From Anaerolineae bacterium (GTDB taxonomy: Bacteria > Chloroflexota > Anaerolineae > B4-G1 > SLSP01): DNA of 64,000 bases. Below are positions 33,708 to 36,953 of the stretch, piece after piece. Made by a program: the position numbers and the translations under genes. The stretch is taken from positions 77,382-141,381 of the forward strand of contig DAOOGN010000001.1 of assembly GCA_035415725.1 (NCBI GenBank), given 5' to 3'. Every line of letters starts with the position of its first letter. The first letter of the stretch is position 1. A model generated the notes under the pieces. That model saw nothing but the letters and a program-made list of their open reading frames with translations. It did no database searches and was not told the DNA's origin.

Positions 33708-34727
33708 ATGAGGGAGTATAGGCATTCTGACCATAGGATTAAAGGGGTATGGAGGGCGTTGGCGAGCCTGGTGGTGCTGGGCTTTCTTTTAAGTGGATGT
33801 GGCACTCCGGAGCCCAAAGTTTACCGGGTGGGTGTCCTATCGGGGTTGGATTTTGTCGCTGCCATCACCGATGGTTTTAAGGAAGGTATGACCGGGTTGG
33901 GTTATGTTGAAGGAGAAAATATCGTCTATGATGTGCAGCAGACAAATTTTGATATAGCTGCCTACAGGAGCATTCTCGACAAATTTATCGCCGATAAGGT
34001 CGATTTGATTTTTGTTTTTCCTACCGAGGCATCTATAGAAGCCAAGAACGTGACCCAAGGGACTGACATTCCGGTGGTTTTCAATTTTGCTTTGATTGAG
34101 GGCGTAGGACTGGTCGATAGCGTGCGTGAACCGGGGGGAAACATCACCGGTGTGCGCTATCCTGGCCCAGATATTGCGGTCAAGCGTTTTGAAATCTTGC
34201 ATGAGATTGTGCCGGATGCCAAACGGATATGGATCCCTTATCAACGAGACTACCCGATTGTAGACAGTCAACTGGAAGCCTTGCGCCCAGTGGCCGAGGC
34301 GGCTAACATTACCTTGATCGAATTTCCTGCTGAGAGTGCTGCCGAACTCGAGGCCGAACTGCAAGCGCGGGCAAAACAGGACGATCCGGGTATAGATGCA
34401 ATTTTGTTTCTTGCAGAACCCCTGGCTGTGACTCCGGAAAGCTTTGCCGTGATCGGCAGATTTGCCGACGAGCATAAGTTGCTTGTCGGTGGAGCCTTGA
34501 TGTCAGCAGAAGGTCATGAATCCGTTTTCGGAGTGAACGTCAACCCTCTTGACACGGGTAAACTGGCGGCGCCTCTGGCGGATAAAATTTTCAGAGGGAC
34601 GCCGGCCGGCACTATCCCCGTGGTCTCAGCCGAGAATTTCGTGCAGATCAACTATAGAGCCGCTCAAGCTTTGGGATTGACGGTGCCTGAAAGTGTGTTA
34701 GCGCAAGCGGATGAGGTGATTCGCTAA
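33708..34727 (+). CDS. PF04392/COG2984-type ABC-transporter solute-binding lipoprotein; no permease or ATPase partner genes in the window
   Basis: ATG at 33708 is preceded by GGGAGGA; the ORF-track start at 33603 would place an unlikely 35-aa extension across the intergenic repeat. The signal peptide with lipobox is MREYRHSDHRIKGVWRALASLVVLGFLLSGC. Family hallmarks are YRVGVLSGLDF...IPVVFNFALIEGVGLVDSVREPGGNITGV. Confidence 0.85.
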   Translation: MREYRHSDHRIKGVWRALASLVVLGFLLSGCGTPEPKVYRVGVLSGLDFVAAITDGFKEGMTGLGYVEGENIVYDVQQTNFDIAAYRSILDKFIADKVDLIFVFPTEASIEAKNVTQGTDIPVVFNFALIEGVGLVDSVREPGGNITGVRYPGPDIAVKRFEILHEIVPDAKRIWIPYQRDYPIVDSQLEALRPVAEAANITLIEFPAESAAELEAELQARAKQDDPGIDAILFLAEPLAVTPESFAVIGRFADEHKLLVGGALMSAEGHESVFGVNVNPLDTGKLAAPLADKIFRGTPAGTIPVVSAENFVQINYRAAQALGLTVPESVLAQADEVIR

Positions 34728-34754
34728 CTGTTCATCTTGTCGAGAGGTGGAACA

Positions 34755-36953
34755 ATGTCTATGCAAACAAAAAAGCCCAAGACCTCACGCAGCCTGGCGG
34801 CGACGTTAGCGTCCGCTTTCTTGGGTTTGACTTTAGTCGCTCTGTTTATTGCCTACATCCCGCAACTGTTCTTTTTCATCCGAACAGGCAATCAGGCGAT
34901 TGCCGGTGAGCAACAGTTGATTGCCAAGGAGGCTGCTAATACGGTGGTTAGCTTTATCGAGGCTAAATTCGGCGTCTTGGAGACGGCGGCCAGACTTGGT
35001 TATCTTATTTCCACCTCTCGGGAAAATCAGAAAGAAATTCTGGCGAGCCTGCTGGGGTCGCAACCTGCCTTCCGCCAGTTGGCTTTTCTGGATGCGCAGG
35101 GATGGGAACTGGTCAGAATCTCTCGGCTCTCGAAAAGCACTTCAGGAGATCTGATCGGTCGGGCTGGAAGTGGTTGGTTAGAGCAGGTGGCGCGGGGAGA
35201 AAGATATATTGGTCCGATTTACGTGGACGAAGCAACGAGCGAGCCACTGCTGGTCATGGCCGTTCCTGCCAGGGATGTTTTTGGCGATTTTCGTGGCGTG
35301 TTGTTGGCCGAAGTGAACCTGAAGTTTATGTGGGATCTGGTCGGCGCCTTGAAGGTTGGCGAGACCGGTCTGGCTTACGTGGTGGATCGACAGGGTAATC
35401 TGATTGCCTTCGGCGATGTCTCGCGCGTTTTGCAGAGCGAAAACGTCAGTCGCCTGGATTTGGTGGCAAAATTCGTTGCGGACCCGGTGCCGGCCGGTGA
35501 GGCTGTGACCGGTGGCTTTCAGGGGATCAATGGCTTCAGGGTGATAGGCACTTACGTCTCTCTGGGTGTGCCCGACTGGGCCGTGGTCACTGAATTGCCG
35601 GTACAGGAAGGAACGGCCTCCCTCATCCGCAGTATCTTGGCATCGCTAGGCGTGATGGTGATTGTCGCCGTCGTTGTCGCTAGAGTTGCCGTTTATATCG
35701 CCCGACGTCTTGCCGTGCCTTTGCTCAACTTGACGACCACCGCCGGCCGGATTGCTGGCGGGGAACTGAATCTACAAGCGGCGTTGCAAGGCCCCTCTGA
35801 AGTGGTGGATCTGGCGCGGGCTTTTAACACGATGACGGCGCAGTTGCGCGAGACGTTGACGGGCCTGGAACAGCGGGTCGCTGAACGCACCCAGGGCTTA
35901 CTGACGGCGGCGGAAGTATCGAGTGCTACAGCGGCCGTGCTTGATCTCGACAAGTTGTTGCCTCAGATCGTCGAGTTAGTGCGAGAGCGTTTCCAATTGT
36001 ACTATGTGGGGCTGTTCCTGACGGATGAAGCCGGCGAATATGCCGTCTTGCGCGCCGGTACAGGTGAGGCCGGACGCGCCATGTTGGCGCGTCAGCACCG
36101 GTTGCGTATTGGTGGTGACTCGATGATTGGTCGTTGCGTGTTGACAGGGCAGGCTGATATTCAACTCGATGTCGGTGAAGCAGCGGTCCACTTTAGCAAT
36201 CCCGATCTGCCGGATACACGTTCTGAATTGGCTTTGCCTTTGCGTGCGGGTGACCAAATTATCGGGGCGATGACAGTACAGAGTGAGCACGAGGCGTTCT
36301 TCTCTCAGGCAGATGTGTCCGTGATGCAGACTGTGGCCGATCAGGTCGCGAATGCTGTGCGCAACGCTCGCCTGTTCCAGCAACTACAGGCCAGCCTGGA
36401 AGCTGAAAGGCGTGCCTACGGCGAATTGGCCAGCGATGCATGGCGCAGCCTGTTGCAGTACCGCTCTGAACTGGGATTTGTGAGTGACGGTCAGAAAACC
36501 GTACAGCGAGCCGATGTCTGGCGACCGGAAATGGAAACTGCCTTGCACACCGCTCAAGTTGTGCCGGGCCAAGGTGATGCGCCGACGGTAGCTATCCCGA
36601 TCAAAGTGCGCGACCAGGTCATCGGGGTAGTCGATGGTTGCAAACCTGATGGCAGCGAATGGACCCAGGAAGAGATCGATATGCTATCGGCACTGACCGA
36701 GCAGTTGAACGTCGCGTTGGAAAGCGCGCGGTTGTATCAAGACACCCAACGTCGCGCCACCCGCGAGCGTATGATCGGCGAAGTGACCGGACGGATCCGT
36801 GAGACGCTGAACGTGGAGGCTGTGCTCAAGACGGCTGTCGACGAAATCCGTCAGGCACTGCAACTGGAACGTCTGGTCGTGCGCCTGGGGACGCCGGATG
36901 AAGACACCGTTCAGCCCGCCGAGAAAGGATACCAAGATGTGGAACAAGATTAA
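34755..36953 (+). CDS. TM-Cache-TM-HAMP-GAF-GAF sensory protein, no output domain
   Basis: ATG at 34755 follows GAGAGGTGG. The TM is LAATLASAFLGLTLVALFIAYI. The periplasmic Cache region of about 250 aa includes PLLVMAVPARDVFGDFRGVLLAEVNLKFMWDLVGALKVGETGLAYVVDRQGNLIAFGD. The second TM is LASLGVMVIVAVVVARVAVYIA. The HAMP region is VVDLARAFNTMTAQLRETLTGLEQRVAERTQ. The GAF reads ERFQLYYVGLFLTDEAGEYAVLRAGTGEAGRAMLARQHRLRIGGDSMIGRCVLTGQADIQ. GAF2 and the tail follow. Confidence 0.87.
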   Translation: MSMQTKKPKTSRSLAATLASAFLGLTLVALFIAYIPQLFFFIRTGNQAIAGEQQLIAKEAANTVVSFIEAKFGVLETAARLGYLISTSRENQKEILASLLGSQPAFRQLAFLDAQGWELVRISRLSKSTSGDLIGRAGSGWLEQVARGERYIGPIYVDEATSEPLLVMAVPARDVFGDFRGVLLAEVNLKFMWDLVGALKVGETGLAYVVDRQGNLIAFGDVSRVLQSENVSRLDLVAKFVADPVPAGEAVTGGFQGINGFRVIGTYVSLGVPDWAVVTELPVQEGTASLIRSILASLGVMVIVAVVVARVAVYIARRLAVPLLNLTTTAGRIAGGELNLQAALQGPSEVVDLARAFNTMTAQLRETLTGLEQRVAERTQGLLTAAEVSSATAAVLDLDKLLPQIVELVRERFQLYYVGLFLTDEAGEYAVLRAGTGEAGRAMLARQHRLRIGGDSMIGRCVLTGQADIQLDVGEAAVHFSNPDLPDTRSELALPLRAGDQIIGAMTVQSEHEAFFSQADVSVMQTVADQVANAVRNARLFQQLQASLEAERRAYGELASDAWRSLLQYRSELGFVSDGQKTVQRADVWRPEMETALHTAQVVPGQGDAPTVAIPIKVRDQVIGVVDGCKPDGSEWTQEEIDMLSALTEQLNVALESARLYQDTQRRATRERMIGEVTGRIRETLNVEAVLKTAVDEIRQALQLERLVVRLGTPDEDTVQPAEKGYQDVEQD

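Follow-up and report, generated by a model that had tools for sequence, protein, structure and literature searches.

The 64,000-nucleotide stretch of DNA analysed here (the window) carries the gene of a PF04392-type solute-binding protein (SBP), SBP1, immediately upstream of the gene of a GAF-containing membrane sensor, sensor 1. SBP1 is probably a lipid-anchored, extracytoplasmic ligand-binding protein that serves signalling rather than transport and acts through sensor 1. Because transporter genes are missing nearby and dozens of unrelated bacteria carry the same pairing, the binding protein is most likely the detachable, ligand-catching subunit of the sensor. The interpretation that the pair adds a new SBP family to the known class of SBP-dependent receptors is well supported; the principle is known, and the pair does not represent a new kind of system.

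The binding protein and the membrane sensor

The features of the pair are as follows.

33708-34727, + strand: SBP1, a class-I solute-binding lipoprotein of family PF04392 (ABC_sub_bind), 339 aa (Pfam, AF2, Foldseek)
33708-33800, + strand: signal peptide and lipobox LLSGC of SBP1, with Cys31; tether to the outer face of the membrane (sequence, orthologue alignment)
34728-34754, + strand: spacer of 27 nt with a ribosome-binding site, GAGAGGTGG, at about 34742-34750 (sequence)
34755-36953, + strand: sensor 1, 732 aa, with TM1, dCache_1, TM2, HAMP, GAF, a GAF-like domain and a conserved tail (Pfam, AF2, Foldseek)
34794-34850, + strand: TM1 of sensor 1, aa 14-32 (TM prediction)
34851-35633, + strand: dCache_1 domain on the extracytoplasmic side, about aa 33-293, where SBP1 is proposed to dock (TM prediction, AF2, Foldseek)
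35634-35690, + strand: TM2 of sensor 1, aa 294-312 (TM prediction)
35697-36359, + strand: HAMP (about 35697-35852) and first complete GAF (about 35943-36359) (Pfam)
36360-36950, + strand: second, partial GAF-like domain and C-terminal tail, the presumed output or interaction element (tail comparison, AF2)

SBP1 matched Pfam family PF04392 with 112 bits (E 4.3e-32; cut-off 25.9 bits) across profile positions 13-293 of 293. Its AF2 model, at a pLDDT of 91.7, has a two-lobe alpha/beta fold, for which Foldseek returned the three solved PF04392 proteins (PDB 3LKV, 3LFT and 6HNI) as top PDB matches at TM 0.81-0.84. A GGGAGG ribosome-binding site lies 7 nt 5' of the ATG. At the N-terminus, a hydrophobic helix is followed by LLSGC; Cys31 is invariant among 17 orthologues (alignment A1), and across the genome loci a lipobox cysteine is present in 128 of 140 SBP1 orthologues, the other 12 having an uncleaved TM anchor. 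This signal peptide and lipobox point to export and an extracytoplasmic location. An earlier note on this DNA had identified a PF04392-type SBP with the lipobox LLSGC at these positions, which the Pfam score, the conservation of Cys31 and the AF2/Foldseek results bear out; its word "periplasmic" is better replaced by "extracytoplasmic, lipid-anchored". In Anaerolineae, relatives of SBP1 form more than 120 clusters at 66-81% identity.

The stop codon of SBP1 (34725-34727) and the ATG of sensor 1 at 34755 are 27 nt apart, the distance claimed earlier; an alternative start for the sensor is a TTG at 34737. A search for a terminator-like site between the two genes found none, and the arrangement is consistent with co-transcription. 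The TM-Cache-TM-HAMP-GAF architecture that had been read from the sequence was confirmed by Pfam, TM prediction and AF2/Foldseek. The dCache_1 domain (PF02743) scored 65.1 bits against a cut-off of 45, and the ectodomain, modelled by AF2 at a pLDDT of about 90, matched the dCache ligand-binding domains of Mlp24, Mlp37, PctA and mmHK1S-Z3 at TM 0.71-0.76. Sensor 1 thus has the layout of a receptor, in which two TM helices flank a ligand-binding domain outside the cytoplasm. The model of the first GAF is equally clear (pLDDT about 92), and that of the C-terminal region, 36360-36950, is of lower confidence (50-80).

HAMP and GAF are the sole cytoplasmic domains of sensor 1, in which Pfam detected no kinase, cyclase, MCP or GGDEF/EAL transmitter. 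HisKA (or an equivalent DHp) and HATPase_c are both absent from 34755-36953, which rules out a two-component sensor histidine kinase. At least 120 clusters of sensor 1 orthologues have the same length and architecture, likewise without a transmitter. A C-terminal tail, ..LESARLYQDTQRRA.RE...I..IR..L..E.VL.TA..E..., is common to all 21 GAF-only proteins of the array to which sensor 1 belongs. The shared tail resembles a truncated GAF (helix alpha-1 and strand beta-1).

Conservation of the gene pair

A search with the SBP sequence only yielded 79 loci, 78 of them with a callable SBP gene. The SBP1 orthologues at these 78 loci are 54-75% identical and span several phyla. Among the source genomes are a complete Calditrichia chromosome (OZ245730.1, locus L068), contigs of megabase scale with the labels Sedimentisphaerales and delta-proteobacterium, and MAGs that carry the labels Bacillota, KSB1 and Anaerolineae. 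Next downstream on the same strand, 70 of the 78 evaluable SBP runs have a HAMP-bearing TM-dCache-TM sensor whose dCache_1 domain is homologous to the window ectodomain, at a median gap of 32 bp and down to -17. Because the adjacency is kept in this many orthologous loci, it is more than chance. Tandem runs of 2-8 SBP paralogues stand before a single sensor at some loci (L044, L016), with no transporter, which fits several binding proteins feeding one receptor.

The cytoplasmic output is swapped between lineages while the input of SBP and dCache stays constant. HisKA-HATPase outputs occur at 29 loci and window-type GAF-only outputs at 24, and the remainder include MCPsignal, HisKA_2, PAS-only and HAMP-only forms. 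At two Bacillota loci (L074, L082), the SBP1 orthologue precedes a dCache-HAMP-MCP protein; on Rhizobium plasmids, a 26%-identical PF04392 gene overlaps a gene for a dCache_1-HAMP-guanylate-cyclase (class III cyclase). Together with the 70/78 adjacency and the lack of transporters, these swapped outputs support the co-sensor pair that the earlier note had proposed. By sequence comparison, the SBP-linked dCache domains are a dedicated subfamily of their own: SBP-adjacent domains scored a median of 234 bits against the window ectodomain, compared with 33 bits for SBP-less dCache sensors in the same loci. Likewise, the window ectodomain and that of the Rhizobium cyclase matched at E 6e-21, whereas the match to another dCache sensor of the window (13460-15805) had an E-value of 0.42. 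Identity to the window pair is correlated between SBPs and ectodomains (r 0.62), for which shared phylogeny alone could account.

The signalling array and a second pair

The following features complete the array.

19-1689, + strand: 3' part of a HAMP-GAF-HisKA-HATPase kinase, first in the array (Pfam)
48052-49137, + strand: SBP2, a divergent PF04392-like lipoprotein (Pfam 36.3 bits against a cut-off of 25.9)
49137-53642, + strand: sensor 2, 1501 aa, with TM, an unclassified ectodomain of about 140 aa, TM, HAMP, 5 GAF and tail (Pfam, TM prediction)
53679-60920, + strand: terminal hybrid kinase, 2413 aa, with multiple GAF, HisKA, HATPase and 2 REC (Pfam)

Within the array, Pfam places HisKA/HATPase_c exclusively in the first and last genes. 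The opening kinase has 783 aa in the full contig, and two single-domain REC genes lie directly upstream of the window (contig context in L093). All array members share GAF modules and the tail, and the terminal hybrid kinase is a candidate recipient of the signals of the GAF-only sensors. A natural fusion of 2417 aa, dCache_1-HAMP-GAFx8-HisKA-HATPase-RECx2, is encoded directly downstream of an SBP1 orthologue at another locus (L030) and joins a sensor-type N-terminus to a terminal-kinase-type C-terminus.

The second pair has SBP2, with the lipobox-type motif LAMAC, and sensor 2, whose start overlaps the SBP2 stop. SBP2 is 18-23% identical to SBP1, its 51 homologues have solely Anaerolineae as source names, and in L086 a fused TM-PF04392-TM-GAF protein has an ectodomain related to it (E 6e-11). 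The order SBP2 then sensor is kept at loci L084-L086, at 38-50% identity. The earlier claim that the arrangement of the first pair recurs at 48052-53642 therefore holds for a conserved SBP and membrane sensor but not for a detectable Cache domain, since the sensor 2 ectodomain matched no Cache/PDC or other Pfam family at E<=10 and a profile of 5 homologues matched nothing in the PDB.

Alternative explanations

No ABC permease or ATPase was found when every large ORF of the 64-kb window was annotated with Pfam, and phmmer searches of all six-frame ORFs with the permease and ATPase of a PF04392 operon gave no window match better than E 2, in line with the earlier statement that the window holds no such gene. 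BPD_transp_2 permease and ABC ATPase homologues were equally missing from the window and 89 fetched loci (best E 0.18), and the 78 orthologous loci have no ABC transporter gene within 10 kb. As positive controls, more distant PF04392 genes on Enterococcus and Salinivibrio plasmids sit in SBP-permease-ATPase operons. Against the TrpX equivalog (NCBIfam NF041285), SBP1 scored 81.8 bits, with a cut-off of 390. An ABC importer operon of the TrpXYZ / CD0873 type was set aside locally on this score and the missing adjacent permease/ATPase. It is nonetheless conceivable that SBP1 serves a BPD_transp_2-type ABC transporter elsewhere in the genome, its adjacency to the sensor reflecting co-regulation or a dual role as in MBP/Tar and BctC/BctE. 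In its favour, the PF04392 family is one of transporter SBPs, with solved members (TrpX-like, CD0873, VC_1101) that come from uptake systems, the plasmid operons are canonical, and the transporter search covered the 64-kb window and the fetched loci. We regard this reading as unlikely: the local lack of permease and ATPase genes holds across the orthologous loci, up to 8 SBP genes stand in a row with one sensor and no transporter, the TrpX score is far under its cut-off, and dual-role SBPs are usually encoded with the transporter, not with the sensor (PMC8050422).

The sensor might also work independently, the dCache domain binding its own ligand and SBP1 being a co-expressed scavenger, buffer or pathway target without sensor contact. 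The ectodomain model does resemble the direct amino-acid binders Mlp24 and PctA, but the R-x-W-Y motif, which we take to be the canonical amino-acid signature, is missing from it by eye. Irrespective of phylum and output domain, the distinct dCache subfamily co-occurs with the SBP clade, and the tight or overlapping spacing of the genes (median 32 bp, down to -17) suggests stoichiometric co-expression; this makes contact-free sensing quite improbable. In most dCache domains that have been characterised, the membrane-distal module itself binds small ligands (PMC8050422), and the SBP might therefore be an additional input, not the sole one. A third reading is very unlikely: SBP1, as a pseudo-SBP that has ceased to bind a small molecule, would serve the sensor as a structural accessory or as its constitutive regulator, in the manner of YycH/YycI with WalK. 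What speaks for it is the ligand-specificity region of the solved homologues, which is poorly conserved in the SBP1 family: the two positions that tune side-chain preference in solved aromatic-amino-acid binders correspond to Leu264 and Val278-Pro280, which fall within the most variable segment among 141 SBPs. However, 35 positions are at least 95% conserved in the same 141 proteins, including the loop motifs FPTE, PGGNITGVR and GG; an N-x-T-G motif is invariant across the SBP1 and SBP2 families and occurs also in solved ligand-binding homologues; and the two-lobe fold is predicted at high confidence.

Proposed mechanism and significance

In the preferred reading, in which SBP1 signals through sensor 1, a small molecule would be bound by SBP1, and loaded SBP1 would engage, or alter its engagement with, the dCache_1 ectodomain. 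The change would be passed via TM2 and HAMP to the tandem GAF spine, and sensor 1 would then modulate the kinases that bracket the array by protein-protein contact. Because sensor 1 lacks a kinase, cyclase or MCP domain, such modulation is its most likely output, and candidate partners are the HAMP-GAF-HisKA kinase at the start of the array, the 2413-aa multi-GAF hybrid kinase at its end and the two upstream REC proteins. Physical docking of SBP1 on the dCache domain is what we infer from the comparative evidence; a ligand for SBP1, a sign of regulation and a route from GAF to kinase are likewise putative elements of the model. The output step from GAF to kinase is the weakest link of the explanation, with the tail modelled at low AF2 confidence.

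SBP-mediated receptor activation is regarded as widespread but under-documented: two reviews (PMC8050422; PMC9602780) count only about 10 characterised cases of SBPs with sensor kinases, and PF04392 is not among the 13 SBP families to which they give a receptor role. The window and the 78 related loci define a cassette recognisable by sequence, namely a PF04392 lipoprotein with a specific dCache_1-HAMP subfamily, and its automatic annotation could end the label "ABC transporter substrate-binding protein" for such genes. Tractable systems are offered by the Rhizobium plasmid version, with its cyclase read-out, and by the kinase versions in other lineages. The pair is also a starting point for finding out what the many GAF-only membrane proteins of Anaerolineae detect. 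More speculatively, the PF04392 SBP with dCache_1-HAMP may be a widespread input cassette mounted on every major output type, with up to 8 amplified SBP paralogues in a row funnelling several ligands into one receptor; in Anaerolineae, more than 20 transmitter-less GAF sensors could possibly dock on one or two multi-GAF kinases via the shared tail, making the 64 kb a many-inputs, one-output integrator.

Relation to known systems

With an SBP gene beside a receptor gene and not beside a transporter, the SBP1 pair would, as judged from its genes, belong with the SBP-dependent receptors of the LuxPQ / TorTS / HptAS class. SBPs encoded beside signalling genes act as co-sensors, and cases with dCache-like ligand-binding domains include LuxP/LuxQ, HptA/HptS, NspS/MbaA and BasB/BasT (PMC8050422, Table 1). 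In the AI-2 sensor of Vibrio, LuxP/LuxQ, a class-I binding protein gene likewise adjoins a membrane receptor gene and not a transporter (PMC8050422), the receptor ectodomain is double PAS/dCache-like, and LuxP acts as the ligand-binding subunit of LuxQ (PMC8050422, Table 1). LuxP, however, is a Peripla_BP_4 protein, whereas SBP1 is a lipid-anchored PF04392 protein, and in place of the hybrid histidine kinase LuxQ the window has a sensor with only HAMP and GAF modules. The analogy to LuxP/LuxQ and TorT/TorS that had been drawn earlier is thus limited to the input side, because sensor 1 has no transmitter domain of the LuxQ/TorS kind.

For the glucose-6-phosphate sensor HptA/HptS of Staphylococcus aureus, the SBP gene also adjoins the sensor gene, and SBPs are membrane-tethered in that bacterium. 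The ligand-binding domain of HptS is discussed under dCache, and in the solved complex its membrane-distal and membrane-proximal modules are spanned by the SBP (PMC8050422). Unlike SBP1, HptA is an SBP_bac_11 protein with a class-II fold, and HptS, a kinase, has its own response regulator, HptR. In BasB/BasT and CosB/CosT of Halobacterium salinarum, the SBP gene adjoins that of a transducer whose ectodomain is dCache-like (PMC8050422, Table 1). These systems match the two Bacillota loci with MCP outputs, although their SBP families are Peripla_BP_6 and OpuAC and their output is chemotaxis. As a precedent for a transmitter-less receptor, GlnH/GlnX/PknG of Mycobacterium tuberculosis is the nearest by analogy: the SBP signals to a membrane protein without enzymatic output of its own, which passes the signal on to a cytoplasmic kinase, a separate protein (PMC8050422, Table 1 footnote). 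By contrast, GlnX has a four-helix bundle as its ectodomain and a Ser/Thr kinase as its partner, and there are neither GAF modules nor a multi-sensor array.

TrpX, CD0873 and VC_1101 (PDB 3LFT, 6HNI and 3LKV) take part in amino-acid import, with Trp, Tyr or Phe as ligands, and CD0873 is a lipoprotein (PMC6816091). SBP1, which is 23-26% identical to them, differs at both specificity positions and has no adjoining transporter; it belongs to the same Pfam family (E 1e-16 to 1e-19), has the same fold (TM 0.81-0.84) and keeps the N-x-T-G loop motif.

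The solute-binding protein and its adjoining sensor

The solute-binding protein (SBP) encoded at 33708-34727 and the membrane sensor encoded directly after it probably form a functional SBP/dCache sensory pair. The features of the pair are as follows.

33708-34727, + strand: SBP1 gene; 339-aa product matching Pfam PF04392 (ABC_sub_bind; E 4.3e-32)
34755-36953, + strand: sensor 1 gene; alternative TTG start at 34737
Sensor 1, aa 14-32: first predicted transmembrane helix (TM1)
Sensor 1, between TM1 and TM2: ectodomain, dCache_1 (65 bits; cut-off 45)
Sensor 1, aa 294-312: second predicted transmembrane helix (TM2)
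Sensor 1, cytoplasmic part: HAMP, one complete GAF, a partial GAF-like domain and a conserved tail

SBP1 starts 7 nt downstream of a GGGAGG ribosome-binding site, and at its N-terminus a hydrophobic helix leads into an LLSGC lipobox (Cys31). A PDB sequence search with SBP1 matched 3LKV, 6HNI and 3LFT (E 1e-16 to 1e-19), the three solved PF04392 proteins. The same structures were nearest in Foldseek (TM 0.81-0.84) to its AlphaFold2 (AF2) model, which was built from 66 sequences and reached a pLDDT of 91.7; ribose-binding, PnrA and LacI-type class-I binding proteins came next. At the cluster level, SBP1 has more than 120 homologues with 66-81% identity.

The SBP1 stop is separated from the sensor 1 ATG by a 27-nt spacer containing GAGAGGTGG. 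A terminator scan found no terminator-like site between the two genes; around the pair, such scans were uninformative, as 0 promoters were returned and terminator-like sites did not exceed the shuffle expectation. The AF2 model of sensor 1 (pLDDT 79.8 overall, about 90 across the ectodomain) resembles the dCache ligand-binding domains of Mlp24, Mlp37, PctA and mmHK1S-Z3 (TM 0.71-0.76), and its cytoplasmic part is similar to the helix-linked GAF/PHY tandem of phytochromes. Kinase, cyclase, GGDEF and MCP domains are all absent from sensor 1. The earlier note had described a PF04392-type lipoprotein with an LLSGC lipobox, followed 27 bp later by a Cache-HAMP-GAF membrane sensor; the Pfam match and N-terminal sequence bear out the former, and the junction sequence, Pfam, TM prediction and AF2 the latter. 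Its statement that the window contains no permease or ATPase gene also held: Pfam searches of all large ORFs detected no ABC permease or ATPase, and phmmer searches with the permease and ATPase of a PF04392 operon against all six-frame ORFs of the window gave a best E of 2.

Conservation of the pairing across genomes

A locus scan with an SBP-only alignment as query, taking one genome per GTDB species, yielded 79 loci with 54-75% identity to the SBP. They come, among others, from a complete Calditrichia chromosome (OZ245730.1, locus L068), from megabase-scale contigs that bear the labels Sedimentisphaerales and delta-proteobacterium, and from MAGs labelled Bacillota, KSB1, Omnitrophota and Anaerolineae; some of the labels given to small co-assembly bins (archaeon, Saccharibacteria) were doubtful and were not relied on. 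ORFs were called per locus and searched, with individual domains of the window proteins as queries. After removal of one locus without a callable SBP gene, 78 loci held 84 SBP runs, of which 6 lay at a contig edge, leaving 78 evaluable runs. A same-strand TM-dCache-TM sensor homologous to the window ectodomain directly followed the SBP run in 70 of these 78, with a median gap of 32 bp. Of the eight exceptions, no fewer than three are artefacts of ORF calling or of a contig end: locus L018 reaches its contig end, and in L045 spurious small ORFs separate the SBP from sensors scoring 225-246 bits. In L032, L061 and L081, the SBP run is followed by a gene on the opposite strand. The SBP-then-sensor order was also present in JGI and NCBI contigs with precomputed Pfam annotation.

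The paired ectodomains form a dedicated subfamily. Against the window ectodomain, SBP-adjacent dCache ectodomains scored a median of 234 bits (n=70), compared with 33 bits for dCache sensors without an SBP in the same loci (n=12); of three high scorers in the latter group, one lies behind an SBP run as its second sensor, and two are parted from the SBP by a spurious small ORF only. The window ectodomain matched that of a Rhizobium cyclase with an E of 6e-21 over 326 residues, as against only 0.42 for the other dCache sensor of the window (13460-15805), which has no SBP. The co-occurrence of the SBP with this dCache subfamily holds independently of phylum and output domain, and it is the strongest argument for the SBP acting at the ectodomain. 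The reading of SBP1 and sensor 1 as a likely co-sensor pair, proposed in the earlier note, is supported by comparative genomics. A correlation between SBP and ectodomain identities (r 0.62) was rejected as a sign of co-evolution and is not counted as evidence, because shared phylogeny accounts for it.

Across loci, the SBP and dCache input is constant and the output domain varies. Of the 70 SBP-linked sensors, 29 have HisKA-HATPase and another 24 are of the window's GAF-only type; Pfam analysis of a sample of the remainder identified MCPsignal (Bacillota loci L074 and L082), HisKA_2 kinases (L055 and L066), PAS-only and HAMP-only proteins. More distant PF04392 genes (23-32% identity) were recovered by tblastn of plasmids. 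On several Rhizobium plasmids, the end of an SBP gene of this family overlaps the start of a dCache_1-HAMP-guanylate-cyclase gene, and in Enterococcus gallinarum and Salinivibrio a PF04392 gene stands first in a canonical SBP-permease-ATPase operon, with BPD_transp_2 and ABC_tran confirmed by Pfam for Enterococcus. PF04392 therefore has both transporter-linked and sensor-linked members, and the window's clade belongs with the latter. The Rhizobium overlap is exemplified by positions 4902-7683 of locus L087 (Rhizobium ruizarguesonis plasmid pRlX2, CP140870.1; also hits H13 and H15), and this SBP/cyclase version of the cassette resides in a culturable, genetically tractable host.

The surrounding GAF array

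The pair lies within a single co-oriented array of about 24 genes (19-60920, + strand), 21 of which encode GAF proteins without a transmitter domain. These 21 differ in their N-terminal sensor modules, which are MASE11, dCache_1, PAS, multi-TM regions or LacI-type binding domains on the cytoplasmic side. In NCBI, the proteins with 100% identity are assigned to an Anaerolineae MAG. The first gene, inside which the window begins (3' part at 19-1689), encodes a HAMP-GAF-HisKA-HATPase kinase (783 aa in full) and is preceded in the source contig by two single-domain REC genes (fetched locus L093, with the upstream context at 6752-10004); the last (53679-60920) encodes a 2413-aa multi-GAF hybrid kinase with two REC domains. 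Arrays of this type, with their genes in the same order, are present in further Anaerolineae contigs (L004, L005, L007 and L084-L086). For the PHP-domain ORF used to extend downstream of the window, no exact match to its product was on record.

A common C-terminal tail of about 60 aa (e.g. 36717-36884) closes each of the 21 GAF-only proteins, with the motif LE.ARL..[DE]TQRRAAREQ..EIT..IR..LD.E.VL.TA..E...L....V.L and low AF2 confidence. The tail resembles the linker helix and the opening helix and strand of one more GAF domain, after which the protein stops. It might serve in docking or supply a strand that completes the partial GAF before it; alternatively, it may be left over from gene fission.

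Several other array members have distinctive inputs. Five proteins (7954-10035, 10165-13374, 15802-18657, 21499-25827 and 27240-30125) contain a LacI-family sugar-binding domain (Peripla_BP_1/3), fused to GAF modules in four and to the tail only in 7954-10035. No LacI HTH was hit in the five and no TM helix was predicted in the two checked; they look like cytoplasmic binding-protein sensors. Three multi-TM GAF proteins (about 30109, about 36937 and 38665) share the N-terminal motif M(W/F)..I(K/R).(F/Y)..(P)PVF..D(E/D). The longest ORFs, with starts at 30043 and 36898, overlap the genes ahead of them, and both starts probably lie too far upstream. In 5365-7938 and 18654-21605, an N-terminal multi-TM region (about 5-9 predicted helices) precedes an extracytoplasmic region and HAMP, combined in 18654-21605 with a dCache_1 domain.

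Proposed mechanism and alternative explanations

As a sensory pair, the lipid-anchored SBP would bind a small ligand and contact the dCache ectodomain, and TM2 and HAMP would carry the signal into the GAF spine. Since the window sensor has no transmitter, its output would probably be modulation of the array's kinases. This is the weakest step of the model; the evidence for it is indirect and draws on the GAF modules and tail common to all array members, on the kinases and REC genes that bracket the array, and on a natural sensor-kinase fusion, dCache_1-HAMP-GAFx8-HisKA-HATPase-RECx2, directly after an SBP1 orthologue in locus L030.

The Enterococcus and Salinivibrio operons offer a precedent for a transport role, but that SBP1 serves a distant transporter is unlikely; searches of the 89 fetched loci for relatives of the Enterococcus permease and ATPase detected none (best E 0.18). 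Both SBP1 and the dCache domain resemble known ligand-binding folds and might sense independently; set beside the dCache subfamily that accompanies the SBP, this is quite unlikely. That SBP1 is a pseudo-SBP accessory which has lost ligand binding is very improbable.

Two to eight SBP paralogues stand ahead of the sensor in 28 of the 70 loci. The runs of eight in L044 (9842-20561) and six in L016 (4695-13182) lie directly upstream of a single dCache-HAMP-histidine kinase, without transporter genes nearby, and adjacent copies share a median identity of 54%. In a set of 141 SBPs, conservation reaches 95% or more at 35 positions, including FPTE, PGGNITGVR and GG, and segment 263-283 is the most variable. 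That segment aligns with two residues setting Phe/Tyr/Trp preference in solved homologues, the only specificity positions that the text of PMC6816091 gives. The pattern would be expected if scaffold and docking surface were conserved and the ligand pockets had diversified. Transfer of a ligand from the solved homologues was dropped and none is assigned to SBP1, because both specificity positions fall in the variable segment.

SBP-dependent receptors are an established class, to which LuxP/LuxQ, TorT/TorS, HptA/HptS, NspS/MbaA, BasB/BasT and GlnH/GlnX-PknG belong. PMC8050422 states that dCache-like ligand-binding domains are common among such receptors and that genes for sensor-kinase SBPs typically adjoin signalling genes; PF04392 is not among the 13 SBP families with a receptor role given there. 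Further such families are expected, according to PMC9602780. In the literature searched, no signalling role was found for PF04392, ABC_sub_bind or COG2984, which appeared only in transporter, vaccine and catalogue contexts; this is no proof of absence. From the family count and this literature result, PF04392 would therefore be a new SBP family in a known receptor class. Sensor 1 has no transmitter domain, for which GlnX is the nearest precedent. Beyond what the earlier note proposed, two features are unusual: the receptor is without a transmitter, and the cassette occurs in combination with each of the major output types and with multiplied SBP genes. The pair is testable and of use to the signalling field; the principle itself is unsurprising.

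The second pair and other SBP-sensor layouts

A further SBP gene precedes a sensor gene towards the end of the array.

48052-49137, + strand: SBP2, divergent PF04392-like lipoprotein (36 bits; 18-23% identity to SBP1)
49137-53642, + strand: sensor 2, TM, ectodomain of ~140 aa, TM, HAMP and five GAF domains; its start overlaps the SBP2 stop

The earlier note had seen the same arrangement here. The gene order stands; the Cache type is not supported, for the sensor 2 ectodomain had no match in Pfam at E<=10 or in a PDB profile search and cannot be recognised as a Cache domain. SBP2 has only 51 homologues, and all source names given are Anaerolineae; the order SBP2, sensor, giant hybrid kinase is kept in three contexts at 38-50% identity. 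In the Anaerolineae contig L086, a 763-aa protein (1938-4229) carries a PF04392-like domain (E 6e-11 against SBP2) between two TM helices, fused to GAF and the tail. This protein is a fused counterpart of the split SBP/sensor arrangement, in which the binding-protein fold serves directly as the sensor ectodomain.

Immediately after the SBP1/dCache pair in locus L001 (12912-15655; also L002, L003 and L006), a PBP_like_2 gene (PstS-type phosphate-binding) precedes the gene of a TM-HAMP-GAF sensor, which makes this the third SBP family with the SBP-then-sensor layout.
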